Of a stretch of DNA of 64,000 nucleotides, positions 1 through 34,678 are shown one piece after another. The translations under genes were made by a program, and so were the position numbers. Position 1 is the stretch's first letter, and every line of letters starts with the position of its first letter. Under the pieces are notes generated by a model. It did not search any database. It saw only the letters and a list, made by a program, of their open reading frames with translations, and was not told where the DNA came from. The DNA is from an uncultured bacterium (GTDB lineage: Bacteria; Chlamydiota; Chlamydiia; Chlamydiales; VFKH01): positions 12,947 to 76,946 of the forward strand of contig CAZQVA010000002.1 in the NCBI GenBank assembly GCA_964596685.1. The letters run 5' to 3'.

Positions 1-150
1 AGTTCGACTTTAAATCGACTTTTGATCGTTGTTTCAGAGGTATCTGCTTATAAACTCCTCTTGGACATGGCACATTGGCCATGACCTTCAAGGCGTTTAT
101 CACCAGCTATCCTTTGAAACAAGGATCAAAAGTCGATTTAAAGTCGAACT
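1..150. repeat. Inverted-repeat element at the recB 3' end, with perfect 27-bp arms and a 96-bp core
   Basis: Bases 1-27 (agttcgactttaaatcgacttttgatc) are the exact reverse complement of 124-150. Each arm contains aaagtcga twice. The right arm continues into tttaaagtcgaactcacgtt (137-156), a motif that recurs elsewhere in the window. The left arm touches the window edge, so the full extent is unknown. Confidence 0.85.
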
Positions 151-3122
151 CACGTTAATAAACTGCTTTTAAGGAGTGGTGCATGAACTTTCCATGTGCC
201 ACTTGTATTTTTGGCAGCAAAATCTTCATAAAGCTGTTTCCAGTGTTTTGTCCAGTATTCTCCTAAGAAAATGACATGCAACGTCTTTTCAGCATCTTCG
301 ACAGTAAGATCGATAGGCCCTTGTAAAATTTCTTCATCCCTTAGATAGATATGTGGCCAGTCACAGGTAATTATAGTGGATGGTAGGCCGCTTAAAAGAT
401 GGCCATCGATAGTATATTCAAAAAATAGTGTCCATAATAGTTGACAATCTGTCTTAAGTAGCTCTTTTAGTTGTTCGGGGGTGGAAACTTTTTGAATTTT
501 ATTTAAGGAAAGGATCTTCATCCAACGTAAAAGAGTTAATTGTTGAAGAGAGCGTTTCAAAGTATAAGATGCTATGGGAACGAGTGAGAGGGGAGAAGGG
601 ATTGTCACTGGAAGCGTGTTGTCTTCAAGTGGGCGCGGTACTATTTCTATAGATTGGGGGACCAAGCGTTCAATTGTACATCCTTCAGGAAGTGTTTTCC
701 AAAAATCTGCTCTCGTCTGTTGGTGTTTAGCAAGAAACAGTTCACTTGGACTTTCATGACCTGCAGCTACTTCTGCATATGAAGTATCTTCTGCATAAGC
801 AATGTATAATTTTTCTTTTGCGCGCGTGCATGCAACATATAGTTGCCGCATTTTTTCGGCGTTTTTTTCTGCAATAAAGGCTTGACCTTCTTCGCTGTCT
901 GCCTTCCATTGAACAAGTGCTGAATGGTTATTGCAAGGAATCAGGAGTTCTTCTTGTGGAGTACGACTTGCGAGTGCAAGTGCAAAAACTATGGGGAATT
1001 CTAGTCCTTTGCTGCTGTGTAAAGTAAGAATTTTGACAGCATCACGCTGTTCTTCTTGGGGAAGTAGTAGCTCAGAATGTTGATGAGTAGATTTCCGACG
1101 TAAATTTTGTAGATGTTTCCAGAGGAGAAATGGGCTTGAGAACTTCTCATTAGATACTGTTTGTATAAGCAAGCGAATGCATTGCCAGAACTGGTCCAAG
1201 AGGGCTGGATCCTTTGAAAATCCGGCAAGCTTGACAACAGTAGAGCCAAACGCGGCCAATCCCTCATTGTTTTCAATACATGCATAAGCTTCATAAAGAG
1301 GCGCCTTAATAGTGGGCGCTAATGCATAAATGTCATGAATAGGCAGGTGAAGGAGGGGGGCGCTAAGTGCCAAGCGGTCAAAACGTTCCTCCTTATGGAA
1401 GGCCGCAAGAAGAAAGGCTTCAAGCGTTGCAAATGCGCCTGTATCAGTGATGGAATTTTCTCTCGTAGTTTGATAGGGAATGCCGTGTGTTTCAAAAAAA
1501 CTTGCCAGGCGTTCTTTTTGGAAACGATCCCGTACAAGACAGGCGAAATCAAGCCATAAGGCACCTTGAGTTTTTAAACGCAAGATCTCTTGAGTTATAT
1601 AGGGAAAAAATAATTGTTCTTCCATCTCTACAGTGGGCCAGCGTTCGGATCTACCAAGCATTGCTTCTGCTACCATCCAGACACATGGAGTTTCTTGAGG
1701 CCAACGAGCAATTCGTTCGGGAGGCGTTTTTACAGGATGTACAGGTAAAAAACGACGCCATTTCGGCAAATCCATCCAATCGGTGGCAAAGAGTGCATTT
1801 AAGGCAGAAATGAGCGCAGGTTGAGAGCGAAAATTTGTATCAAGTACAGCAAAGGAATCGTCAGAAAAGTGTGTCTTTGCACGTAAATATGTATAAAGAT
1901 CTGCTTGTCGGAATGCATAAATCGATTGTTTTGGATCTCCAACAAGGAAGAGGCGCTTTTTCTCAAAACATTTCCAGAAGATCTGCCATTGAATGGGATC
2001 GGTATCTTGAAACTCATCGACAATAATGACAGAAAATCTCTCTTGAATAGCTTGAACAAATTCCGGGATTGCAAGAGCTTGCTCCATTCTCCATAGCAAA
2101 ACGTCGGGATCTTTATCGAGTTCTGCTTCGCGGCGCTTTTTAGCACAGTAGGAAGCAAGTTGGATGAGGAGCAAAGTGCGGTCACCAGCCTGCCAAACAC
2201 TATCTAGTGCATTTGTTAGTTGTAAAATAGGAGAGGGCAGGAGGGGAGCTTTTTTCTTAAGAGGCGCTTTTAGAAATTCAAGAAAACAAGGTTCCTGATA
2301 AAGGAGTTGTTCGAAATTATCGCGGTTGAGTGAGTCCAGAGATAATAGGCTTTCTAAATGGGCGATCTGTTTTTGCCAGTGAGACTTTAATTCCCCATTA
2401 CGAGATGTCGTGCTTTGGAAATAGGGTGCGTGCTTTAGAAGGGAATCGACAAGGATCTCTTTAGGTAGCTTTTGAAATTGTTGCGAAAATGCTAAAAAAT
2501 GTTCTTCACAATTTTGGGGCCCGATAATGGGAAGGCGAGATGAGATGAGAGGCAGCAGGTCATCGACAAGGGATTCAAGAGGACGGGAGCCCAAAAGTCG
2601 AGCCATTTGTGCGGGAGTGAGTACCGTTTCATCAAGATGTAAAAGGAGATTTTTTATGTACTCACGTTGCGAAAGGAGAGTGTCATTGCGTAGGTTTTTC
2701 AAAGGGATTTTAGCAAGGAAGGCATGTTCGTTTAGCATTCTTGCACAAAAACCATGAATGGTGCAGATAAAGCTTTCAGAAAAATGAATCAGAGCACGGC
2801 GTAGTTGCAAAATGGCATGTGTACGTTCTAAATCGGAGCTTTCAATAAGGGGCTGTAAATAAGAAAAAGGTCCGGCGACACTTGTTTCTAGGCATTCAAT
2901 CAGTTTTATCAACTGTTTGCGAATGCGATCCCTTAAATCGGCAGTGGCCGCTTGTGTAAAGGTGACAACGAGGATTTCTTCAAGAGAGAGTTCTTTTTCA
3001 AATAGTAAAAGACGGGCAACGATATTCTCGATGGCAAATGTTTTCCCCGTGCCGGCTGATGCTTCGAGAAAGTAAGAATGAGACAAATTGAGATCAAGGC
3101 TTAAGACATCAAATGCCATCAT
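150..3122 (-). CDS. recB: RecB-like SF1 helicase (exodeoxyribonuclease V beta subunit family)
   Basis: 990-aa ORF. It has Walker A EASAGTGKTF, motif II VIIVDEFQDTD, TNFRS, LHSSKGLEF and YVACTRAKEKL. Its start overlaps the upstream recC-like ORF by 14 nt. Confidence 0.85.
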   Translation of the reverse strand: MMAFDVLSLDLNLSHSYFLEASAGTGKTFAIENIVARLLLFEKELSLEEILVVTFTQAATADLRDRIRKQLIKLIECLETSVAGPFSYLQPLIESSDLERTHAILQLRRALIHFSESFICTIHGFCARMLNEHAFLAKIPLKNLRNDTLLSQREYIKNLLLHLDETVLTPAQMARLLGSRPLESLVDDLLPLISSRLPIIGPQNCEEHFLAFSQQFQKLPKEILVDSLLKHAPYFQSTTSRNGELKSHWQKQIAHLESLLSLDSLNRDNFEQLLYQEPCFLEFLKAPLKKKAPLLPSPILQLTNALDSVWQAGDRTLLLIQLASYCAKKRREAELDKDPDVLLWRMEQALAIPEFVQAIQERFSVIIVDEFQDTDPIQWQIFWKCFEKKRLFLVGDPKQSIYAFRQADLYTYLRAKTHFSDDSFAVLDTNFRSQPALISALNALFATDWMDLPKWRRFLPVHPVKTPPERIARWPQETPCVWMVAEAMLGRSERWPTVEMEEQLFFPYITQEILRLKTQGALWLDFACLVRDRFQKERLASFFETHGIPYQTTRENSITDTGAFATLEAFLLAAFHKEERFDRLALSAPLLHLPIHDIYALAPTIKAPLYEAYACIENNEGLAAFGSTVVKLAGFSKDPALLDQFWQCIRLLIQTVSNEKFSSPFLLWKHLQNLRRKSTHQHSELLLPQEEQRDAVKILTLHSSKGLEFPIVFALALASRTPQEELLIPCNNHSALVQWKADSEEGQAFIAEKNAEKMRQLYVACTRAKEKLYIAYAEDTSYAEVAAGHESPSELFLAKHQQTRADFWKTLPEGCTIERLVPQSIEIVPRPLEDNTLPVTIPSPLSLVPIASYTLKRSLQQLTLLRWMKILSLNKIQKVSTPEQLKELLKTDCQLLWTLFFEYTIDGHLLSGLPSTIITCDWPHIYLRDEEILQGPIDLTVEDAEKTLHVIFLGEYWTKHWKQLYEDFAAKNTSGTWKVHAPLLKSSLLT

Positions 3123-5880
3123 TGACTCCTTCTATCCATAATTTTGCAACAGGGTGCCACTCCTCAATAATTTGATCCGCCTTCATAGGTAATTGTGACC
3201 AAAGATAGGCGCCATCTGGAGCTCTTTCAAATGGTGCGATTTTTTCTTTAATTTTTCTGGTTAAAAGTTCTTCATTTTTTTCAGCAACAGCATGCACCCA
3301 ATCAGGGTGTAATGGACAGGGTTTTTTTCGTATTGCAAAGAATACTTGAAGTAGTTTGTTCCAGGCTCCTTGTTCCCAATTCAGAAGAAGTTTTTCTTGG
3401 GAGGGTAAAAAGATCCATTCCTTGGGTGATTTTGTTTGTTGTTGCATTTGATAAAATAGCATGGATGGCCATTGTTGTAGGATTTGCTCCTTACTTTTTT
3501 CAGTGAGGGATAATACTCCTTGAGGCCCTAAAAAAGGTAATTGTCCATAAATGGTGAGTGTCTGATTTTGAAATGGAATCTGAAGAGATTCCTTTGGAGT
3601 GATATGGAGGTCTTCAAGGCGAATGCCGAAATGTTGTAATTGCTCTTTTAATTTTATGCATTCGCGTTCGATGCGCAATTGCCCGCATTTTTTTAGGAGA
3701 GAAGAAGATCCCTTGTCAACGTTATGTACAGTATTTTCTAGCAGGGCTATTTTGGCTAGATAGCAGTCGAGTGAGTCAATAGAATCTGCTTCCTGGAGGG
3801 AGCGGGGCATCTCAATTTGCAGGACTTGTTCTAAATAGTATTTTAGAGGGTGTTTAAAGGCTTGGCGCAATTCAAAAAGAGAGAGGTCTTTGATAGGACA
3901 ACTTATCTCGATAGGGGATGCAAATGTTGTATGGGATAGTAAAGTGGGATGTGGTAATGAGTGAATTAAAGGAATTATACCTAGCGTTTCATAAAGTTCT
4001 TTTACGAGATAGCTTGCTTCTTGTTGAGGGCCACTCACACAGTAGCTAATCCACAATTGGTCTTGTGCAAGAAGTAATGCGTGGAGGAAAAGGCTCATTT
4101 CAATATGCAAAGGAGAAGCGCTTGTACGTTCAACAAAATGTGGTTGACTATTGCTGCGCGGGAATGCATCGGCATTCATATTCAGGAGAAAAAGAGCGCG
4201 CGCAGGGCGTAACCTACCTGGGAGGAGTGAGGCGATACGTATGCCACCTATCGATTGAGTGGCTAAAGTTGCTTCTTCTTGGTTTAATAATGTCTCTAAA
4301 AAATGGCCAGCGACTTGTTTAGAAAGCGGCACGCGCTGCCAACGCAGAGCACTTTCCTGGAAATGCGTTAATTGTTCTAAGAGGTATTCAGCTGCAGGAT
4401 CCCCATCAAAAGATAGCCATTTTAAAAAGAGCTCCGTAAAGAATTTCACCCAATCTTCCGCTGTTTGATAATGAGGTGTTATAAGGCTTGAGCGTACCTC
4501 CTGAAAAATAGTGTTCTGTTCTTGTGAGAGTTGGTGCAATTCTTTAACAGCAAGAAATTGTGCGCGTTGATTAAAAACTTTATGGTGAAGAAAAAATAGC
4601 CAGTCTGCTCTTTTTCCTTTTTCGCAAAGAGGTTCGGTAATTCGGTGTACCAGCCATAGAACCGCTTCAAGTAAGGGGCTTTGTTCTTTAAGCTTGAGAT
4701 CTTCGATGCATAAGGGCAGCCCTTTGAGTTCTTCATAAAGGAATGGCGCATCACTTGAAATGAGAGGTGTTAGGATGAGAATTTCATGTGGAGCAAGGCC
4801 ATTTTCAAGAAGCCTGAAAATTTCTACTTTTAACGTGCTATACTGCTGATGAAGTGTAGTGAACTGATGGATTTGTATGGATTGATCGACTGTTTTTTTC
4901 TGTACAGGTTGTAGGAGAGCGATTTCGCTTTGCAGCTCGAGCAACGCTGTCATAGGACCACTTTTATGGAAATAAAGATCTGGCATGAGTGTTTCGCGAA
5001 GAGGGTGCTCGTTGATACTCTCAGGTAATGTGTAGTGAGAGACACTTGGCCAATTTGTCGCTTCAAAAGCTTCTAAAAGTAGTCGATCTTGCTTGCCCCA
5101 ATTCGCTAAAAACCAATTGCTTGTCTCAAAAAAATTCTCAAGAGCTAATCTTTCCCCTAATCTAACACCGCGTGATTCCCAAAAGAGCTGTAGGTGCTGT
5201 CTTTCGCGTTCGGTGCGCAGATCTGAGAAAAACAACGCTGATGGACAGTGAAGATAGAAAAAAATTGGCAGAGCTTCATCCATTTTTCGCAATAAATGCC
5301 ATAAAGCACGTGTAAAAGAAGAGGGGGCAAAAAAGTGAAGAGTCTCAGTGGAATGTTCTGCTGGTAGTGTCTCAAGCGAATTGATTGTTTCCAAACAAGG
5401 TTTGATGCCATGCTCACGACACAAATGATGCCAGATTTCTAAAGGCCATCCTTCTGTAATACCTTCCGATGACCATTCTTGAAATAAGGAGGCTAAATGC
5501 AAACCCAAGTTGAGAGAAGCATCCCCTTGGCTCATTGCTTGTAGGTAATTTTTTGCTGGACCTGGCAGGTGAGGTAATAAATTCTCAAGGAGTAGAGCTA
5601 ATTCCATCTGCGATGGAAATAAAGGGAATGAGCGCTTAAAAAAGCGAGGTACCCACTGACCAAAAACTTCATGTGGTAATAAAATGCGAATGCCAAGAGT
5701 TTTTAGACCTTTCTGTTGTAGAGAATACAGTAGCCATTTTCCCATCGCTTCGCACGAAACGACAATCCAAGTGGGCACAACACTTGAGTAGGGGTGCTGC
5801 AAGAGTTGCTCCACTAAAGCTTGAAGCAGGCATTCTAATCGATTGCTGTAGTGAATTAATGGATGACTCATAAGCGCCAT
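3109..5880 (-). CDS. recC: RecC-like protein (exodeoxyribonuclease V gamma subunit family)
   Basis: 923-aa ORF immediately upstream of and overlapping recB. The N-terminus HYSNRLECLLQAL resembles RecC N-termini. It has no ATPase motifs, as expected for RecC. The call rests mainly on context. Confidence 0.7.
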   Translation of the reverse strand: MALMSHPLIHYSNRLECLLQALVEQLLQHPYSSVVPTWIVVSCEAMGKWLLYSLQQKGLKTLGIRILLPHEVFGQWVPRFFKRSFPLFPSQMELALLLENLLPHLPGPAKNYLQAMSQGDASLNLGLHLASLFQEWSSEGITEGWPLEIWHHLCREHGIKPCLETINSLETLPAEHSTETLHFFAPSSFTRALWHLLRKMDEALPIFFYLHCPSALFFSDLRTERERQHLQLFWESRGVRLGERLALENFFETSNWFLANWGKQDRLLLEAFEATNWPSVSHYTLPESINEHPLRETLMPDLYFHKSGPMTALLELQSEIALLQPVQKKTVDQSIQIHQFTTLHQQYSTLKVEIFRLLENGLAPHEILILTPLISSDAPFLYEELKGLPLCIEDLKLKEQSPLLEAVLWLVHRITEPLCEKGKRADWLFFLHHKVFNQRAQFLAVKELHQLSQEQNTIFQEVRSSLITPHYQTAEDWVKFFTELFLKWLSFDGDPAAEYLLEQLTHFQESALRWQRVPLSKQVAGHFLETLLNQEEATLATQSIGGIRIASLLPGRLRPARALFLLNMNADAFPRSNSQPHFVERTSASPLHIEMSLFLHALLLAQDQLWISYCVSGPQQEASYLVKELYETLGIIPLIHSLPHPTLLSHTTFASPIEISCPIKDLSLFELRQAFKHPLKYYLEQVLQIEMPRSLQEADSIDSLDCYLAKIALLENTVHNVDKGSSSLLKKCGQLRIERECIKLKEQLQHFGIRLEDLHITPKESLQIPFQNQTLTIYGQLPFLGPQGVLSLTEKSKEQILQQWPSMLFYQMQQQTKSPKEWIFLPSQEKLLLNWEQGAWNKLLQVFFAIRKKPCPLHPDWVHAVAEKNEELLTRKIKEKIAPFERAPDGAYLWSQLPMKADQIIEEWHPVAKLWIEGVNDGI

Positions 5881-6028: not shown

Positions 6029-6073
6029 TTTTAAAGTCGAACTTACGTTTCATAATGTGTAACCGTTACACAT
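6029..6073. repeat. Copy of a modular dispersed repeat (ttaaagtcgaac-ttacgtt module plus palindrome atgtgtaaccgttacacat)
   Basis: Bases 6031-6049 (ttaaagtcgaacttacgtt) differ by one base from the corresponding part of the 137-156 copy. The palindrome at 6055-6073 is identical to 23369-23387. Confidence 0.8.
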
Positions 6074-6101
6074 TGGTCAAAATCCTCTATCTGGTATGCT
6101 A

Positions 6102-6264
6102 ATACCCATCCCACCTGAAGAATTGGTTTTAGGCCGAAGAAAAAGCTTCCGCGATCGCGCCAGAAAAAAAGTCCCCATATTACTAATATGAGGACTTTTT
6201 TTCTGACTCGAGCCCGGGGCTTTCTCTTCTGTCTCAAATCCAATTCTTCAGGTGGGATGGGTAT
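6102..6264. mobile_element. MITE-like non-autonomous element, 163 bp, with perfect 25-bp terminal inverted repeats
   Basis: The left TIR at 6102-6126 (atacccatcccacctgaagaattgg) is the exact reverse complement of 6240-6264. There is an internal 13-bp hairpin (6162-6174 pairing with 6192-6204). The element has no coding capacity. A partial copy lies at 33976-34047 and a minimal copy at 27005-27047. Confidence 0.8.
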
Positions 6265-6296
6265 ATATAGTTACAATTCAAAAAGTAGGGCAGCGC

Positions 6297-7544
6297 ATGG
6301 ATCAGACAAAAACGGATAAAGTGGTAGATAAGGGGTGGTGGGGTTTTCACTGGCTCAATATCACCCAGTTTTTGGGAGTGGTGAATGATAATCTATTCAA
6401 GTTGTTACTGATTTTTTTCCTTGTTCGTTTAGAGGGACAGGATGCTTCCCCCTTGATTTTATCGCTAGCGGGCGCGATTTTTGTTATTCCATTCCTTCTT
6501 TTTTCCATGCCTTCTGGTGTATTAGCAGATCGCATGAGTAAGCGGACCATTATTATCTTAACGAAATGTGTAGAATTGGCAACTGCTATATTAGGTCTGA
6601 TAGGATTTATTTTCGTTTCGCCTATGGCTCTTTATGCGGCTCTTTTTCTACTAGCCACCGAAAGTGCAATTTTGGGGCCATCTAAATATGGAATCGTGCC
6701 AGAGCTGGTTTCTCGATCGCTAATTTCACGCGCTAATGGCTACTTGAGTTCAGGGACGTTCTTGGCTATCATCGTTGGAACGTCTATGGCAGGTCCTTTA
6801 GTGCAATTGGTGGATTTTGACTTTGTGATTGCAGGAAGTGCCTGTGTCTTAATTGCGTTTATCGGGTTTATCTGTAGCTGGCGTATTCCACATACCCGTC
6901 CTGTGGGCACCGAAAAAATGATGCAAGTATTTTTCCTAGGTACAATTTGGAGCGGCATTAAAAGGGCACAAAGAGTGCCATGTCTTTTTTCTTCAATGAT
7001 GGGATCTGCATTTTTTCTCTTTGTTGGAGGATTTGCCCAATTGAATGTCTTACCATTTGCTGTGCATTGCATGGGGTTGAGTGATGTACAGGGAAGTTAT
7101 CTCTTTCTTATTACCGCTTTGGGTATTGGATGTGGATCTTTAATAGCAGGACGTCTTTCAAAAGGCAGTGTACATCTGGGTCTTGTCCCTATAGGTGCGT
7201 TAGGAATGAGTATCAGTTTATTGGTTATTGGCATGTGTCCTTCATTTACCATCCTAGTGATTGCACTTTTTTCAGTGGGTGGCTTCGGAGGAATTTATCT
7301 CGTGCCACAAGATTCATATATCCAGGTTGCAAGCCCCGCAGAAGATCGTGGAGAGAATGTGGCCATTAATAATTTTACAGCCTTTGTTGGAGTCTTAATT
7401 GCATCGGGAATGATCTATTTATTTGGTGAGATATGGAATTTATCCCCAGCTCGAGGCTTTACCATGATTGGAATAGTTACACTTTTGTTTGGCGCAATAA
7501 TTACCATTCCAATTTTAAAACATTTAAATTTTAATCGAAATTGA
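6297..7544 (+). CDS. MFS transporter, LplT-like (lysophospholipid transporter family) by N-terminal pattern
   Basis: The protein is multi-TM. The N-terminal segment ITQFLGVVNDNLFKLLLIFFL resembles the LplT/MFS_1 signature. The start was moved to ATG 6297 because the track start at 6252 is a GTG inside the MITE TIR. Confidence 0.7.
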   Translation: MDQTKTDKVVDKGWWGFHWLNITQFLGVVNDNLFKLLLIFFLVRLEGQDASPLILSLAGAIFVIPFLLFSMPSGVLADRMSKRTIIILTKCVELATAILGLIGFIFVSPMALYAALFLLATESAILGPSKYGIVPELVSRSLISRANGYLSSGTFLAIIVGTSMAGPLVQLVDFDFVIAGSACVLIAFIGFICSWRIPHTRPVGTEKMMQVFFLGTIWSGIKRAQRVPCLFSSMMGSAFFLFVGGFAQLNVLPFAVHCMGLSDVQGSYLFLITALGIGCGSLIAGRLSKGSVHLGLVPIGALGMSISLLVIGMCPSFTILVIALFSVGGFGGIYLVPQDSYIQVASPAEDRGENVAINNFTAFVGVLIASGMIYLFGEIWNLSPARGFTMIGIVTLLFGAIITIPILKHLNFNRN

Positions 7545-7578
7545 ATGATAATGGAAGCGACGAAAGAATGAGGATCAC

Positions 7579-7881
7579 ATGACGAAAATTCCACCACTTT
7601 CTACTATTACACCATCGACTGTTGAAGCCCGTGTAAATAGTGCCTATAAAGAAGCGCGCATCTCACGCGTTGCTTTTGCAGCACTGGCTGGGCTTTCTAT
7701 GGCCACATGTTTAACAATTGCAGGCTTGGCACTTGGAACAACGCTCGTATTTCCTCCTGCAGCGCTAATTATCACGGCAGTGGCATTTGCTGTCTTTGGA
7801 GTTTTAGCGTTTATGGAGCGCAAGCATGAGCAGCGAGCGCTAGATCAAAATATAGCTTTCTTGGGTAATCAGAGGCTATAA
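7579..7881 (+). CDS. Small membrane protein with a bilobed hydrophobic domain (Inc-like candidate)
   Basis: 100 aa. About 35 polar N-terminal residues are followed by VAFAALAGLSMATCLTIAGLALGTTLVFPPAALIITAVAFAVFGVLAFM, two adjacent TM segments joined by a short turn. Confidence 0.55.
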   Translation: MTKIPPLSTITPSTVEARVNSAYKEARISRVAFAALAGLSMATCLTIAGLALGTTLVFPPAALIITAVAFAVFGVLAFMERKHEQRALDQNIAFLGNQRL

Positions 7882-9041: not shown

Positions 9042-9775
9042 CGGTATCCTTGGGCCTCGAGTTCCTTGGCGAGACTTGCCTCTCCTGAGCGCACAATTTT
9101 ACCATCTACCATCACATGGACAGAGTGTGGAGCCACATAATCCAAAAGGCGTTGGTAATGCGTGATCAGTAAAAGTGTTTTATCAGGGCGCATCCAGCGG
9201 TGAATCCCATGAGAAACGACGCGCATAGCATCAATATCGAGGCCTGAGTCTGTTTCATCGAGTACAGCAGCAATCGGATCAAAAAGTGCCATTTGGAGGA
9301 TCTCGTTGCGTTTTTTTTCTCCGCCTGAAAAACCTTCGTTGACGCCGCGTGCCGCGAATTCTTCGGGAATTTCAACCCATTGCCGTTTTTCTTGCAAGAG
9401 CGTCTCAAATTCTTCATCGCTTAATGCTTCTTTGGCTTGTGCCTTGCGTTGTGCATTAAGTGCTTGTTGTAAGAAGAGGCGGTTATTTACACCAGGCACC
9501 TCGGGAGGGTATTGAAAGCCAACAAAAAGTCCGCTCGCAGCGCGCTCTTCGATCTCCATCTCAAGTAGGTTCTTATCTCCTAATAAGATGCTCCCTTCGG
9601 TGATAGTATATGCTGGATGGCCAGCCAAGACTTTTGCTAGAGTAGATTTTCCTGCTCCATTTGGACCCATAATTGCATGGACATGTCCCGCATAAAGAGT
9701 TAATGAAAGGCCTTTAAGGATCGGTTTGTCTTCAATAGAGGCATGGAGGTTATCGATAGTCAAAAGAGGTTGCAT
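9038..9775 (-). CDS. sufC: Fe-S cluster assembly ATPase SufC
   Basis: It has Walker A GPNGAGKST, signature FSGGEKKR and Walker B AVLDETDSGLD. It lies directly downstream of sufB. Confidence 0.9.
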   Translation of the reverse strand: MQPLLTIDNLHASIEDKPILKGLSLTLYAGHVHAIMGPNGAGKSTLAKVLAGHPAYTITEGSILLGDKNLLEMEIEERAASGLFVGFQYPPEVPGVNNRLFLQQALNAQRKAQAKEALSDEEFETLLQEKRQWVEIPEEFAARGVNEGFSGGEKKRNEILQMALFDPIAAVLDETDSGLDIDAMRVVSHGIHRWMRPDKTLLLITHYQRLLDYVAPHSVHVMVDGKIVRSGEASLAKELEAQGYR

Positions 9776-13097: not shown

Positions 13098-13255
13098 GGA
13101 CTTTAGACAAAATCTAACATTTTTACTAAGATAGCTCTAGAGCGCCTTTAAGGTGGCGCATCATCTCGAATAGCTGGGGCTATGTTTGATGACACCCTAC
13201 CTCAAATCCACCCTGGAGCGGTCGCTCTAAAAATGTTAGATGTTGTCTAGAGTCT
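13098..13255. repeat. 158-bp element bounded by an imperfect 28-bp inverted repeat
   Basis: Bases 13098-13125 (ggactttagacaaaatctaacattttta) match the reverse complement of 13228-13255 at 25 of 28 positions. The interior contains ctagagcgcc...ggcgcatcat, which is also found at 40539-40572. Confidence 0.7.
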
Positions 13256-22937: not shown

Positions 22938-23376
22938 GCGATCCTTTTTCACCCTACTTGAAATGATGCTTGTTGTGATTTTAGTAGGTCTTTTATTTAG
23001 TATAACCTTGCCGCGTGCATGGAAATTGTGGCGGCAGTGGCAAGAGGAACGTCTTATTACACACTTACATCATCGCATCGAATTGGTAGAGCAGCTGGGA
23101 CATTTGCTAGATCTGGATGTCGTCATGCATTTCGACCAGCAAGAAGATGGTCTGCATTTTTCTATTGAACGCCCAGCTGCGCTTGCTATGCGACATTTTC
23201 TCTGGCTGCAAAAACCTCTGCATCTTCCCTCTATATATCAATTTTCTGTAGATGAGAAGGTACAGGATCATTACCAATGGCATATGTGGCCCAATGATGT
23301 GGAGTATCCTGGGATAACATTACGTGGATCTGCTTGCTATCACTTATCTCAAAAAAACCAAAAAGATCATGTGTAA
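22918..23376 (+). CDS. Minor pseudopilin-like protein (GspH-like)
   Basis: The sequence MSRIHSKRSFFTLLEMMLVVILVGLLF is a prepilin-type N-terminal domain. The start could be ATG 22909 or 22918. The stop codon lies inside the palindrome at 23369-23387. Confidence 0.6.
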   Translation: MSRIHSKRSFFTLLEMMLVVILVGLLFSITLPRAWKLWRQWQEERLITHLHHRIELVEQLGHLLDLDVVMHFDQQEDGLHFSIERPAALAMRHFLWLQKPLHLPSIYQFSVDEKVQDHYQWHMWPNDVEYPGITLRGSACYHLSQKNQKDHV

Positions 23377-23400
23377 CCGTTACACATTCGACTTTTAAAG
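23369..23400. repeat. Copy of the modular dispersed repeat (palindrome plus ttcgacttttaa) between convergent genes
   Basis: Bases 23369-23387 (atgtgtaaccgttacacat) are identical to 6055-6073. The following ttcgacttttaaag is the reverse complement of the ttaaaagtcgaa module. Confidence 0.8.
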
Positions 23401-23404
23401 AAGT

Positions 23405-25166: not shown

Positions 25167-27020
25167 ATGTGGCGTTTTCCTGTCATCTATGATGTCATTG
25201 TAGTAGGGGCGGGGCATGCGGGGTGTGAAGCGGCGTATGTCGCTGCACGACGCGGTGCCCGAACCCTCATGCTTACAATGAACCTCGATACCATTGCCAA
25301 GATGAGTTGTAATCCGGCAATTGGAGGAGTAGGGAAAGGGCATATCGTTCGTGAGATCGATGCGCTTGGTGGCATTATGGGCAAGATAACGGATCGCACA
25401 GCGATTCAGTTCCGTATGCTAAACGCTTCTCGCGGTCCAGCTGTTTGGGCACCACGTGCTCAAGCGGATAAGGCTGCGTATCAATTAGAAATGAAGCGTG
25501 TTCTTGAATTACTTCCTAATTTAGAAATCAAGCAGGGAACCACCGAAGGTCTGTGGATTGAAGATGATCGCATTTGCGGCGTTCACACTCTAGAGGGGAT
25601 TACCTATCAAGGAAAAACGGTTGTTCTTTCCGCAGGTACCTTTATGCGAGGGTTATTGCATTTAGGACAGACACAATATAGTGGTGGACGTGCGGGTGAT
25701 AAGCCATCGGTAGGTCTATCTGCAGATTTAGAAGCCCTTGGATTCCGTTTAGGACGTTTAAAGACGGGGACCCCCCCGCGCATACATAGTTCATCCATTG
25801 ATTATAGCTCTTGTGAACTGCAGCCCGGAGAAGATGGGGTTTGTTTTTCATTTGATGCACCTGAACCACGTTTACCGCAGGTTCCTTGTCATATCACTTA
25901 CACTACTGCTCAGACAAAAGAGATTGTAAATAAGAATCTCCATCGCTCAGCTATGTATTCTGGTGCAATTCGGGGCGTGGGGCCTCGTTATTGTCCCTCT
26001 ATCGAAGATAAATTTGTACGCTTCGCTGATAAAGAGCGTCACCAAGTCTTTTTAGAGCCTGAAGGTCTCAATACGCAAGAAGTTTACGTCAATGGGATCT
26101 CTACATCACTGCCTGTTGATGTCCAACATGACTTGATCCGCTCTATTGTTGGGCTTGAGAATGCACAAATTATGCGTCTGGCCTATGCTATCGAATATGA
26201 TTATCTCATCAGCGGACAAGTCGACTATACTTTAGAGAGTCGCACGGTTAAGGGGCTCTTTTTTGCTGGGCAAATTAATGGAACAACGGGTTATGAAGAA
26301 GCAGCAGGTCAAGGGCTTATTGCAGGAATTAATGCTGTCAACCGCGCTTTTAATCAGTCTGCATTCATTTTAAGTCGCAATGAGTCCTATATTGGAGTCA
26401 TGATTGATGATCTCATTAATAAAGGGTTGGGAGAGGAGTTTGGTTGCCAAGAGCCTTACCGCATGTTTACTAGCCGTGCTGAAAATCGCTTAATGCTGCT
26501 ACAAGGGAATGCGGATTTAAGACTACGCAAATATGGGTATGAACTTGGGCTAATTGATCAGCAGCCCTATGAAGCATTGGTAAAAAAACAAGCATGTATT
26601 GAGCATGAATGCCAACGTCTGCAAAAAGTTTTTGTTCAGATCAATGGAAAGGGATATTCTTTGGCTCAGTTGCTGGCGCGTCCTGAAAGCTCCTATGCTG
26701 AATTGCAAGCGCAATACCCAGAAAAACTTGATCCTCTGCCTCAAGATGTAACTCAACATATTGAGTGGAATTTACGCTACGCAGGGTATATCAAACGGCA
26801 GGAAATTGAGATTCAGAAACTCGAACAAATTGATACAATCGAAATCCCTGAAGACTTTAGTTATGCGAGCATTAAGGCGCTGTGTCGAGAGGCACGTGAA
26901 AAACTCTCCCGCATTCGCCCTAGGACTTTAGGTCAAGCTTCGCGCATCAGTGGGATTTCTCCTGCAGATCTCTCTATTTTGATGGTGACGCTGCGGAGAA
27001 CATGTACCCATTCTACCTAA
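25167..27020 (+). CDS. mnmG: tRNA uridine-5-carboxymethylaminomethyl modification enzyme MnmG (GidA)
   Basis: The FAD motif [14 protein letters not shown] is present and the 617-aa protein is collinear with GidA. The last five codons and the stop lie in the left arm of the 27005-27047 hairpin. Confidence 0.95.
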
Positions 27021-27047
27021 AATCCAATTCTTCAGGTGGAATGGGTA
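27005..27047. repeat. Minimal copy of the MITE arms, forming a 14-bp hairpin between convergent mnmG and fmt
   Basis: Bases 27005-27018 (tacccattctacct) pair with 27034-27047 (aggtggaatgggta), with one mismatch and a 15-nt loop. Bases 27019-27047 match the right TIR region of the 6102-6264 element. Confidence 0.8.
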
Positions 27048-27982
27048 TTAACGGCTTGCACAGGGTACCCGCAAGCGAATGCTTTAGCTGTTACAATACT
27101 TTTACCTGGTATCTGGACTTCTAAAAGTTCAAGAGAGCCCTTCTTGCATGCAATAATGATACCCGATTTTCCCCATTGTAAGATTTGTCCCGGTGTATGA
27201 TTGGATTCATCATACAGGCGCGTTTTGAGAATACGTAGTTTTTCTTCTTTTCCTCTCAGGCGGATTTTACACCATGCACCCGGCTCAGGATTGGTCCCGC
27301 GCACGAGGTTGTGTATTTCAGCTGCAGATCGATTCCAGTCAATATAGGTGTCATCGAGTGTAATTTTATGAGCAAAAGTTACCATACGTGGATCTTGCTC
27401 CTGGGGAATAATTTTACCCGCAAGCCATCCACGCACCGTATCGCGTAGCAGAGGCTGGCTTAAATGACATAGCTGATCGCGCAATTCGCCATAAGTCATA
27501 TCAGGAGGGATTTCAATGGAAGCGGTTGCTAAAATTGGTCCCGCGTCCATTTCCAGAGCCATTTTCATGATCGTCACGCCAGTCGATGTTTCACCATTGA
27601 TAAGTGCATACTGGATGGGTGCCGCCCCTCTTAAAGTCGGTAAAATGCTGCCATGAACGTTGATGACACCATGTTTTGGGACATCTAACAAATTTTGCTT
27701 AAGGAGTTGTCCATAGGCAACGACAATAAACAGCTCAGGATTTAATGCGGCAAGTTGAGAGACACTTTCAGCGCTAGAGGCTTTAAGTGGTTGAAAACAG
27801 GGTACGTGAGGTAAAAGTTTGGCAGCAACCTCTTTGACAGGAGGAGCAAGAAGTTGTTTGGAGCGCCCTTGTGCTTTATCGGGTTGCGTTACGATGCCAA
27901 CCACTTCGAAAAAGGGATCACCAATTAAGTCCTCGAGGATTTTGGCGGCAAAATCCGGTGTGCCAAAGAAGACAACCTTCAT
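27032..27982 (-). CDS. fmt: Methionyl-tRNA formyltransferase
   Basis: MKVVFFGTPDFA and HGSILPTLRGAAPIQ are present. It sits in the conserved lpxC-fabZ-lpxA-fmt arrangement. Confidence 0.9.
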   Translation of the reverse strand: MKVVFFGTPDFAAKILEDLIGDPFFEVVGIVTQPDKAQGRSKQLLAPPVKEVAAKLLPHVPCFQPLKASSAESVSQLAALNPELFIVVAYGQLLKQNLLDVPKHGVINVHGSILPTLRGAAPIQYALINGETSTGVTIMKMALEMDAGPILATASIEIPPDMTYGELRDQLCHLSQPLLRDTVRGWLAGKIIPQEQDPRMVTFAHKITLDDTYIDWNRSAAEIHNLVRGTNPEPGAWCKIRLRGKEEKLRILKTRLYDESNHTPGQILQWGKSGIIIACKKGSLELLEVQIPGKSIVTAKAFACGYPVQAVNTHST

Positions 27983-32477: not shown

Positions 32478-34052
32478 CTATTTATATGTTTTTCTTTTGA
32501 AAATTGCTACTAATAAACACAAAGTCGAACAGCAGATAATTCCCCAGTCTCCAAGATGAGGATATAGGGTTGGATGATTGATGAGATGAACTGTTTCTCG
32601 ATGTGCGATTGTTTGATCGATCGATGTGAGGTATAAAATACGGCCTTGATGGTCGATGACACCAGAAATTCCTGTGGTACAGCTTCTAAGAAGGGGGATT
32701 CCATTTTCTGCCGCGCGCACGCGAGCATGCAAAAAGTGTTGGTAGGGTAGAGTTGAATGGGGATACCATCCATCATTAGTTAGATTTAGAAAACACTGCG
32801 CCCCCAATTGCCGAAAAAGACACATTGTGCGTCCAAATGTTTCTTCATAACAGATTGAAGGAGCAAAAGCGTGGCTACTATAAAACAGCACAGGGCTTTG
32901 ACCTGGAGCAAAAGAATCGTAGATATCAAAACGCTCTGCTAAGCTACGGCACCAGGCATAGGGGATATATTCACCAATGGGGACAAGAATTTGTTTTGCA
33001 TAACTATAATGTTCTTTTCTGTCATGGGGGATGAAGAGGGCGGACTGGTAAGTTTGTGGGAGGTTGTCTCGCTCTTCTAATCCGACCACCACATCTGCAT
33101 GCCAGCGACGCGCTAGGTTTTGTAGGCCCTCAAAAGTGGATTGCCAAATGATCTGATCCTGCCACTTGATGGGGAAGCGTTCATGTGCTTCAAAAGCAAT
33201 AGCATTTTCTGGCATGAGAATAAGATCAATGGAGTCTTTTGCATAAGGGAGCATGAGTTTTTCAAGATTTTCTAAGCGAAAAAATGGATGCTCATTAAAA
33301 GAGGCCATTTGCCCTGGTTGCACTAAAAGGATATTAAAGTTACCTAAGGGCGTCTTATTGTACTCATTTGAAAGCATCAGCACACTGCCTAGGCTAAAGA
33401 GGCCGATCAGTGTGGCACAGTAGACTTTAGGGCGTGTTAGGAAGGCGCAGCCATTGAGAAAAAAGAGCGCAAAGGAAAGGCCAAAAATCCCAAGAATACT
33501 GCTGAGTTGTAAAAGTGGAAGATTATGGCTCCATAACATCCCCCATGGATTCCACGAAAAACCCGACATAAATTCGAGGCGTAAAAGCTCCATGATTGTT
33601 CCAAACGCTGCAAGCGCACAGACTAAATAGATGTTGGAGCGCTCTTGTCTTTTGAGTTGAAAGGCGATAGCCGTGAGTAGAGTCATTTGTATGCTACATG
33701 CAGAAGCGACAAAGAGCCAAAGAAGCAGAAAAAGGGGGCCTGTCAATGTGATCGCACTCATCCATGAGATCCAAATACCCCATATGCTCATGAAAAGAAA
33801 AAATGCAGCAGGTAATTGCTTGCGCGGCGGCAAGAGCCAGAGGCCTTTCCAGAGTAACGCTAGTCCAAAAGCACCTGAAAAAAATGCTAGGAGGTCAAAA
33901 TAGGGAAATAAGAGGCCCGACTGCCCCAGTGCAAGCAATACAAATCCGCAAACAGTCCATAAAATGGCAAGATAAGGGCTTTTTTCTTGACTCGAGCCCG
34001 GGACTTTCTCTCGGTTTAAAATCCAATTCTTCAGGTGGAATGGGTGTCGCAT
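32478..34052 (-). CDS. lnt: Apolipoprotein N-acyltransferase
   Basis: An N-terminal polytopic region is followed by a CN-hydrolase domain (LILMPENA, PSICYEETF). The first ~25 codons run through a partial MITE copy, so the true start is uncertain. Confidence 0.85.
   Translation of the reverse strand: MRHPFHLKNWILNREKVPGSSQEKSPYLAILWTVCGFVLLALGQSGLLFPYFDLLAFFSGAFGLALLWKGLWLLPPRKQLPAAFFLFMSIWGIWISWMSAITLTGPLFLLLWLFVASACSIQMTLLTAIAFQLKRQERSNIYLVCALAAFGTIMELLRLEFMSGFSWNPWGMLWSHNLPLLQLSSILGIFGLSFALFFLNGCAFLTRPKVYCATLIGLFSLGSVLMLSNEYNKTPLGNFNILLVQPGQMASFNEHPFFRLENLEKLMLPYAKDSIDLILMPENAIAFEAHERFPIKWQDQIIWQSTFEGLQNLARRWHADVVVGLEERDNLPQTYQSALFIPHDRKEHYSYAKQILVPIGEYIPYAWCRSLAERFDIYDSFAPGQSPVLFYSSHAFAPSICYEETFGRTMCLFRQLGAQCFLNLTNDGWYPHSTLPYQHFLHARVRAAENGIPLLRSCTTGISGVIDHQGRILYLTSIDQTIAHRETVHLINHPTLYPHLGDWGIICCSTLCLLVAIFKRKTYK
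33976..34047. repeat. Partial (right-half) copy of the 6102-6264 MITE-like element
   Basis: gggcttttttcttgactcgagcccgggactttctctcggtttaaaatccaattcttcaggtggaatgggtgt aligns with 6191-6264 with a few substitutions or indels. Confidence 0.8.
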
Positions 34053-34678
34053 GGAAAATACTCGGGTAGAGGGGCTGTGAATTCTATTTCTTCTCTCTGT
34101 ATTGGATGGTGTAGCCGCATTTTATGGTGATGTAGAGCGATGGCATGTTTTTGAGGCCAAGGCATGCCACCATATTTTATATCGCCTAAAATAGGTGAAC
34201 CTAAAGCAGCTAGTTGGATGCGAATTTGATGATAGCGTCCAGAGATAAGTTCTACTTGCAGCAAGGAACCAGTTCCTTTTTTCAATAGAGTAGTATAGTT
34301 TAATTGAGCAAGTTTGGCACCAGGTGTGCCAGGTGGTACGATGTGTGCTTTATGATCACCATGTGTTAGCCAATGTTCGCAGGTGCCAGTGGGGCAAGAG
34401 GGGGAGGGATGAACGAAAGCCAGATAGGTCTTTGAACAAGTGCGCTCTTTGAGTGCGGCATGCAGACGCGCAAGGGCTTTGCTCGTTTTGGCACAAAGAA
34501 GAATCCCGCTGACAGGTTTGTCGATTTGATGAGCCGCTTCTAAAAAGACATTGCCAGGTTTATTTAGCAAGATCTTGAGAGTGTCGCGTGCGTTATAAGT
34601 GGCCTCTTCAGTCGTCTGACCAGCGAGTTTATTAATGACAACAAGATGGTTGTCGAGGAATAAAATGGGATGTTTCAC
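34031..34678 (-). CDS. RluA-family pseudouridine synthase
   Basis: FLDNHLVVINKLAGQ and the catalytic-Asp motif HQIDKPVSGILL are present. The last codons (THST-stop) lie in the repeat. Confidence 0.8.
   Translation of the reverse strand: MKHPILFLDNHLVVINKLAGQTTEEATYNARDTLKILLNKPGNVFLEAAHQIDKPVSGILLCAKTSKALARLHAALKERTCSKTYLAFVHPSPSCPTGTCEHWLTHGDHKAHIVPPGTPGAKLAQLNYTTLLKKGTGSLLQVELISGRYHQIRIQLAALGSPILGDIKYGGMPWPQKHAIALHHHKMRLHHPIQREEIEFTAPLPEYFPCDTHST

Follow-up and report, generated by a model that had tools for sequence, protein, structure and literature searches.

Among the palindromic repeats described in bacteria, the RPEs of Rickettsia offer the closest parallel to the sequence considered here. 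The series RPE-1 to RPE-10 goes back to Ogata et al. (2000), which we follow as far as it is summarised in PMC10969869 and PMC1458961. RPEs number in the hundreds per genome, with 526 in R. bellii, about a tenth of which (53) lie in protein genes (PMC1458961), and the frequency of their in-frame fusions has been stressed in a review of MITEs (PMC10969869). In-frame palindromic insertions in housekeeping enzymes are known mainly from Rickettsia and have so far been treated as peculiar to it. Other described repeats include the Correia elements, for which promoters formed at the junction of terminal inverted repeat (TIR) and flank have been documented (PMC10969869), and the much shorter REPs, which measure 20-40 bp and in most cases have one end tagged with GTAG or CGTC (PMC3733652). 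Our literature search found no MITE or palindromic element in Chlamydiae, and a 2024 MITE review omits the phylum; the suspicion of a preliminary description of this locus, that such elements are undescribed for the phylum, thus holds for the literature searched.

Here, we report on a 163-bp sequence at positions 6102-6264 of a 64-kb stretch of chlamydial DNA (the whole of which we call the window). We consider it quite probable that this sequence belongs, as an intact copy, to a multi-copy family of non-coding miniature inverted-repeat elements of the foldback type that resemble RPEs in behaviour.

Genomic Context

The 163-bp sequence lies between two divergent genes, recC (3109-5880, minus strand; Pfam Exonuc_V_gamma and RecC_C) and a gene for an MFS transporter (plus strand, from an ATG at 6297 to 7544; identical to the 415-aa NCBI protein P0001). 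Gene positions, Pfam matches and NCBI protein identity agree on this placement, which is the one originally proposed. The named homologues of the MFS protein are Chlamydiales, Parachlamydiaceae and Candidatus Protochlamydia proteins with 50-56% identity, and the host is therefore a chlamydia without a close relative in the databases. While the window protein has 415 aa, most chlamydial homologues are fusions of about 598 aa with an acyltransferase domain (PF01553). A 100-aa ORF (7579-7881) comes after the MFS gene, and the region 6297-7881 may thus hold a split or truncated lysophospholipid transporter/acyltransferase gene.

A consensus scan placed a promoter-like site for recC at 6080-6052, to the left of the element, and found no promoter in the element's right arm. 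The apex of the element, which is terminator-like, would stop read-through reaching the MFS gene from this left-side site. Because read-through would be blocked in this way, we speculate that the MFS gene would most likely be transcribed from the right arm or from the junction of TIR and flank, GGGTATATATAGT; a junction promoter of the Correia type is conceivable there by analogy.

The sole promoter-like site for recC is itself overlapped, at 6052-6080, by a short repeat that occurs in two spacers of the window (6030-6075 and 23368-23402) and consists of TTTAAAGTCGAA followed by a 19-nt palindrome, ATGTGTAACCGTTACACAT. Its 13-mer TGTAACCGTTACA occurs twice against 0.1 expected occurrences, and its TTTAAAGTCGAACT part is also the end of a further palindrome at window positions 1-150. 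The short repeat could be either a REP-like mini-repeat or an operator.

Two other long foldbacks are present in the window. The first, at 1-150, is unrelated to the 163-bp element and has 40-nt arms (95% complementary) around a 70-nt centre; it runs from the first base of the window to the recB stop codon (150-152) and may extend leftward. The second, at 13099-13254, has 76-nt arms that are 71% complementary, rising to 93% in the 27-nt ends. It was assembled intact in the Logan contigs L007 and L008, and is therefore probably single or low copy.

Structure of the Element

The perfect 25-bp TIRs of the preliminary description, at 6102-6126 and 6240-6264, were confirmed base by base. The left TIR, ATACCCATCCCACCTGAAGAATTGG (plus strand), holds a TGA in frame c, and the right TIR (minus strand), its exact reverse complement, holds the GTG at 6252 from which an over-extended MFS ORF starts. 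This ORF and two others that had been traced to the TIRs (6043-6243, minus; 6188-6319, plus) are as described. Matches to ATACCCATCCCACCTGAAGAATTGG numbered four in the window, compared with 0.00 in 100 dinucleotide shuffles.

The inverted repeat is, however, not limited to these ends, as had been assumed. The entire 163 bp form a single imperfect palindrome, with 81-nt arms (6102-6182 and 6184-6264) that are 78% complementary, and symmetry, fold and a family profile that covers all of 6102-6264 (nhmmer E = 6e-45) together delimit a full-length copy to which we assign no strand. Folded as RNA, the element reaches -99.5 kcal/mol on the plus strand (z = -14) and -107.3 kcal/mol on the minus strand (z = -16), and with DNA parameters -58 kcal/mol. 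The A/T stem noted earlier exists, but as a part of this continuous stem, and its loop measures 3 nt rather than 17.

At the apex (6163-6203, likewise without strand), a hairpin in an 11-bp register with the 3-nt loop is flanked by A7 and T7, so that it appears terminator-like on both strands; the two apex hairpins, one per strand, have predicted energies of -9.4 and -13.3 kcal/mol, with U7 directly after each. A simple consensus terminator scanner made no call here because of an internal mismatch.

The element contains no start-to-stop ORF, as first reported, but "no ORF" was too broad a statement: frame 0 of the minus strand is open over all 54 codons. A phmmer search with this 54-aa open frame against 1.84 billion representatives returned no matches. 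In size (163 bp, within the range of about 50-500 bp, and without a transposase gene) and in its perfect 25-nt TIRs, which have matched variants in every other full copy (one possible degenerate end pattern for the family being TACCCANNCNACYTGAANADTYGG), the element resembles a MITE.

Decayed Copies in the Window

Two of the TIR matches lie outside the full-length element, one at 27024-27048 with a single mismatch and one at 34023-34047 with two, where none would be expected by chance. BLAST and the family profile extended the first to an internally deleted remnant of 45 bp (27004-27048, without strand), which retains both TIRs and has lost the interior, and the second to a 96-nt half copy on the minus strand (33951-34047), consisting of an apex remnant, one arm and a TIR. 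With the full-length element, this gives three copies in the 64-kb window. The 45-bp remnant still folds into a hairpin (-22.1/-20.7 kcal/mol), and the half copy no longer does (z = +0.7).

These decayed copies sit at gene ends. The 45-bp remnant constitutes the entire spacer of the convergent genes mnmG (25167-27020) and fmt (27032-27982) and supplies both of their stop codons (27018-27020 and 27032-27034), which leaves 11 nt between the genes. The half copy lies between a gene for an rluA-like pseudouridine synthase (34031-34678) and lnt, and the rluA-like gene takes its stop from the TGA of the TIR at 34031-34033. All three genes, mnmG, fmt and the rluA-like gene, enter a TIR in one and the same frame and end in THST* followed by the TGA or TAA of the TIR. 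In this frame the TIR stop is reached after 4 codons, versus 9 and 29 in the other two. The THST* tails fit selection for a short tail after insertion; we propose that all three genes end in this way because only the shortest-tail frame survives at 3' ends, where a copy would persist if the host frame meets the TGA of the TIR after four codons. Insertion into the TA of stop codons was considered as another origin of the tails and rejected, since the codon before ACC is TGT, AAT or GAC and not the expected TAT.

The half copy also bears on the annotation of its other neighbour. The longest lnt ORF (32478-34052, minus strand) starts just beyond the TIR and continues across the half copy. No database protein has the N-terminus that the half copy encodes, and the Pfam LNT_N match begins at residue 60; for both reasons, the true start of lnt is probably downstream, at a predicted non-ATG codon near residue 28.

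Copies in Other Genomes

A six-frame translation of the element, searched against a protein database, found the protein P0121, and a second search that also included the translated copy in this protein yielded P0124, P0125 and P0126. Three of the corresponding copies measure 162 bp and lie in genes for a RecD-like protein (P0121; L019 7969-8130), a protoporphyrinogen oxidase (P0124; L022 2776-2937) and a metallophosphatase (P0125; L024 192-353); the fourth, in a gene for a TPR/transglutaminase-like protein (P0126; L025 4511-4627), measures 117 bp and has its apex deleted. Homologous copies are thus present in at least three metagenomic genomes besides the source. The genome represented by L022 and L024 has at least four copies in 9 kb, including partial ones at contig ends (L024 1-99 and L022 6610-6697). 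These two partial copies comprise only the inner part (GCGAAAGCTCCCGCGATTGATCGATCG...) and no outer 25-bp TIR, and one of them has a different apex, which points to a modular or nested build of the 162-bp element, with an inner palindrome within an outer one.

These four copies in P0121, P0124, P0125 and P0126 all lie in ORFs and in the same element frame (YPNxLK...QSRELSRQPKS...LGI), which in the 162-bp copies is the only one of six without a stop. The inserts in the RecD-like protein and in protoporphyrinogen oxidase are mid-protein, and the alignment of P0124 to its PDB homologues is broken at the insert. Those in P0125 and P0126 are near the N-terminus behind TTG starts; they could be 5'-UTR copies absorbed by the gene caller, and may not be translated. 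Residence in frame in protein genes is a hallmark of RPEs, and the likeness to Correia/RPE-type elements drawn in the preliminary description is in this respect apt. The three features of an RPE, namely a palindrome, in-frame location in genes and a conserved peptide, occur together in the relatives' copies and not in those of the window.

The elements of the window and of L019 agree at 72% of positions overall and at 92% in the TIRs, and share the apex loop motif CCCCATATTnCTAATAT, while the RecB proteins of the two loci are only 31% identical. The U/A tracts at the apex of the window copy are not kept in the L019-type copies. Among the copies in L019, L022, L024 and L025, the interior is 92-94% identical and the TIRs 80-92%, with TIR changes mirrored in both arms. 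An interior more conserved than the TIRs is unusual, being the reverse of the usual MITE pattern.

Assembly Breaks

Contigs of three further read sets provide another indication of repetition. Logan contigs of ERR7015365 and SRR14271331/32, which are independent assemblies of the same strain as the window, carry the exact recC/MFS locus and break off 60 or 28 nt into the right arm. Such ends are how a de Bruijn assembler handles a sequence found at several places in a genome, and we therefore take the sequence to be multi-copy. The possibility that it has no further copies, which the preliminary description had raised against itself, is contradicted by these breaks, by the two decayed window copies and by those in at least three further metagenomic genomes. 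In two other assemblies of the L019 locus, contigs end exactly 13 nt into the left TIR (L020 5957 and L021 4403; ...TTATACCCAAACCAC), which could reflect a repeat, a population variant or a drop in coverage at the hairpin.

Since libraries or assemblies can generate palindromes and contigs do break at the element, we also weighed whether the inverted repeat might have arisen by chance or as an artefact of assembly in the form of a foldback chimera. We give this explanation almost no credence: no TIR matches were expected by chance, the same junction sequence occurs in independent read sets, and homologous copies occur in unrelated assemblies from different pipelines.

The Orthologous Site

The L019 scaffold matches the window in gene order, with an MFS gene divergent from recC-recB-recD; the source organism's own recD lies just beyond the left edge of the window. 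Its MFS protein is an orthologue, 54-63% identical to named Protochlamydia proteins, and from this orthologue and the synteny its host is identified as a chlamydia, an assignment based on sequence comparison. In L019 the start codons of the MFS gene and recC abut at about 1609, which leaves no room for an element, and the L019 copy is in recD instead. The empty spacer therefore indicates that the element is not an old conserved feature regulating the MFS/recC spacer, although the comparison is with one very distant relative (RecB 31%). This runs counter to the other possibility left standing by the preliminary description, an ancient conserved regulatory region. The nearest MFS homologues, P0002 and P0004 (L026 and L027), were also considered as a test of the site and proved uninformative, having another gene order and no element.

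The L019 scaffold carries other palindromes. One of 142 bp (7421-7562; 50-nt arms, 96%) is accompanied by a partial second copy at 9180-9213, another measures 93 bp (9231-9323), and the recB-recD spacer also has a palindrome, different in sequence from the 1-150 element of the window. The recC, recD and MFS genes of L019 are each called as two ORFs, and a stretch of N occurs at about 1237-1246; the split ORFs represent frameshifts, pseudogenes or assembly errors.

Conservation of the Foldback

An alignment of five copies has 72 consensus pairs with 97% of cells paired, and 19 of the 72 pairs have changes on both sides; the copies come from about four genomes, two of them from one, and so represent few independent events. 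None of 500 shuffles reached these values, and slid partners gave one to four double-change pairs. TIR variants differ from genome to genome, and in each of them the two arms have changed in step. The foldback is thus being maintained, possibly through the needs of the element or its transposase, through selection on a hairpin of DNA or RNA, or through template-switch correction. The last of these, in which quasipalindromes are "corrected" by template switching during replication, is an established mechanism and could yield covariation of the arms without selection.

Compensatory changes that keep pairing would also be expected of a cis structure selected by the host, such as a bidirectional terminator or insulator, an mRNA 3'-end stabiliser or an RNase III site, recruited repeatedly and kept for its function. 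The A7-hairpin-T7 apex, terminator-like on both strands, agrees with such a role, as does the 27004-27048 remnant, which fills a convergent-gene spacer and still folds at -22 kcal/mol, and effects of this kind on transcripts are known for Correia and ERIC elements (PMC10969869). We nevertheless judge this explanation unlikely. The U/A tracts are not conserved in L019-type copies, the full copy stands between divergent genes, where there is nothing for a terminator to end, and other copies are within the coding sequences of unrelated enzymes. Moreover, the half copy is unfolded (z = +0.7), Rfam offers no match and the orthologous L019 site is empty. Exaptation of single copies is possible.

The boundaries of the element can be read in two ways. 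Both ends are intact in five copies; four of these read TA|TACCC...GGGTA|TA, and the fifth, that of the window, has AA at its left flank. A TA target-site duplication is possible, although TA is self-complementary and the flanking bases could equally be two more bases of the inverted repeat. An element of 160 bp with a 2-bp duplication would give a net gain of 162 bp, which is in frame, as in the relatives' copies.

Origin and Mobility

Given this evidence, we return to the reading of the 163-bp sequence as a miniature inverted-repeat element. Such an element would spread as selfish DNA, either by cut-and-paste or by being copied. A transposase supplied in trans would recognise the ends of ~25 bp, and insertion would probably be at a TA dinucleotide. 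Selection would then act on the insertions, with intergenic copies being tolerated and intragenic ones surviving only in an open frame.

Neither the window nor the 243 kb of loci examined contained a transposase or a full-length IS with such ends. For the window this had been anticipated, and all of its TIR matches within 3 mismatches are accounted for. An IS5-like remnant at 55277-56216 was considered as a parent and rejected; its 20-bp inverted ends (AGACCTCTTGAGTAATTAAA / TTTAATTACGCAAGAGGTCT) are unrelated to the TIRs of the element, as the preliminary description had already recognised. The transposase of this remnant is frameshifted and lies in at least two pieces (55383-55751 and 55847-56110).

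Searches of wider collections added little. Paired-TIR and degenerate TIR patterns had no matches in viral contigs, and a search of PLSDB plasmids in distant mode found no match. No Rfam family matches the element: only two tRNAs in the window reach the gathering threshold, and the best match on the element in E-value mode, to a miRNA-precursor hairpin, scored 32 bits against a gathering threshold of 150. Scans of genome and metagenome contigs with the 20-mer CATYCCACCTGAAGAATTGG gave 6 and 7 singletons, respectively, all of which were dismissed by BLAST and alignment as chance matches, those in L012, L014 and L015 sharing a 23-mer inside a GC-rich coding region. The 20-mer is too strict, missing the TIR variants of L019, L022 and L025, and its scans say little on the distribution of the family.

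A different route of mobility would be that of REP/REPIN-type sequences, in which a hairpin is spread as single-stranded DNA by a RAYT, an IS200/IS605-like HUH tyrosine transposase, rather than by a DDE enzyme acting on TIRs. Here the whole element, and not just its ends, is a hairpin, covariation of its arms is what would be seen if the folded strand served as substrate, the flanks show no target duplication that is free of ambiguity, and inner-module copies exist without the outer TIR (L024 1-99 and L022 6610-6697). However, at 163 bp the element is far from REP size, its ends read ATACCC and lack both the GTAG and the CGTC tag, the ORFs scanned in the window and loci included no RAYT-like gene, and its copies are also found in frame within genes, whereas REP/REPIN sequences are typically extragenic. 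On balance, we regard this route as improbable and retain the miniature element, with its inferred dependence on a transposase in trans, as the preferred explanation.

Implications

A broader reading, which we put forward tentatively and rate below an even chance, is that this sequence is the first recognised member of a Chlamydiota-wide, RPE-like foldback family with near-identical 25-bp ends and a conserved apex, common to lineages whose RecB proteins are just 31% identical, that has repeatedly entered proteins (RecD and protoporphyrinogen oxidase, and more ambiguously the N-termini of a secreted phosphatase and a TPR protein) and gene termini; the chlamydial placement of the relatives' hosts rests on L019. 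If true, the distribution would point to horizontal traffic among intracellular bacteria with amoebal or other eukaryotic hosts in common, or to a conserved mobilising enzyme. It would also constitute a parallel, convergent with Rickettsia, of selfish palindromes remodelling the proteins of obligate intracellular bacteria. The same behaviour in a second obligate intracellular phylum suggests a link with lifestyle, through small populations, weak selection and shared eukaryotic hosts, and would provide a second, independent system in which to study the mobility of such elements and the tolerance of proteins for them.

Recognition of the family has practical value as well, since it improves the annotation of chlamydial genomes and MAGs. 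The element accounts for assembly breaks (in three read sets), for false or over-extended ORFs (the GTG at 6252 and the lnt N-terminus) and for rewritten gene ends (the three THST* tails). The family could also serve in strain typing.

Comparison with Known Systems

Among described systems, the RPEs show the greatest likeness to this element. They too are palindromic repeats, of about 100-150 bp, in an obligate intracellular bacterium, with many copies that are intergenic or at gene ends and a fraction in frame in unrelated housekeeping genes, where one frame is conserved; no associated transposase is known in either case. They differ in belonging to Alphaproteobacteria rather than Chlamydiota, with no relationship in sequence to be expected, and here the in-frame copies were seen in relatives and not in the window, where the density is three copies per 64 kb. 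We suggest by analogy that the element works like an RPE, a likeness of behaviour and not of sequence homology, and do not claim membership.

Several other families share single aspects of the element. Correia elements (NEMIS) of Neisseria are MITEs of 100-160 bp with TIRs of ~26 bp, a TA-flanked site, positions close to promoters (PMC10969869) and just upstream of genes, and stem-loop RNAs. Only their ends are inverted repeats, however, while here the whole element is a foldback, and the Correia TIR sequence is one that we take to be unrelated to the TIR of the element. The hosts differ as well, and we compare the two by features rather than by sequence homology, with no claim of membership. 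The ERIC/IRU elements of enterobacteria are likewise imperfect palindromes (about 127 bp for ERIC) that are transcribed as long hairpins (PMC10969869), and the SPRITE of the pneumococcus is a terminator-like repeat (PMC10969869), as is the apex of the window copy on both strands. ERIC, in contrast, is largely vertically conserved within enterobacteria, and no sequence similarity to our element is expected; nor is the terminator-like apex, which invites comparison with ERIC and SPRITE, kept across the family described here.
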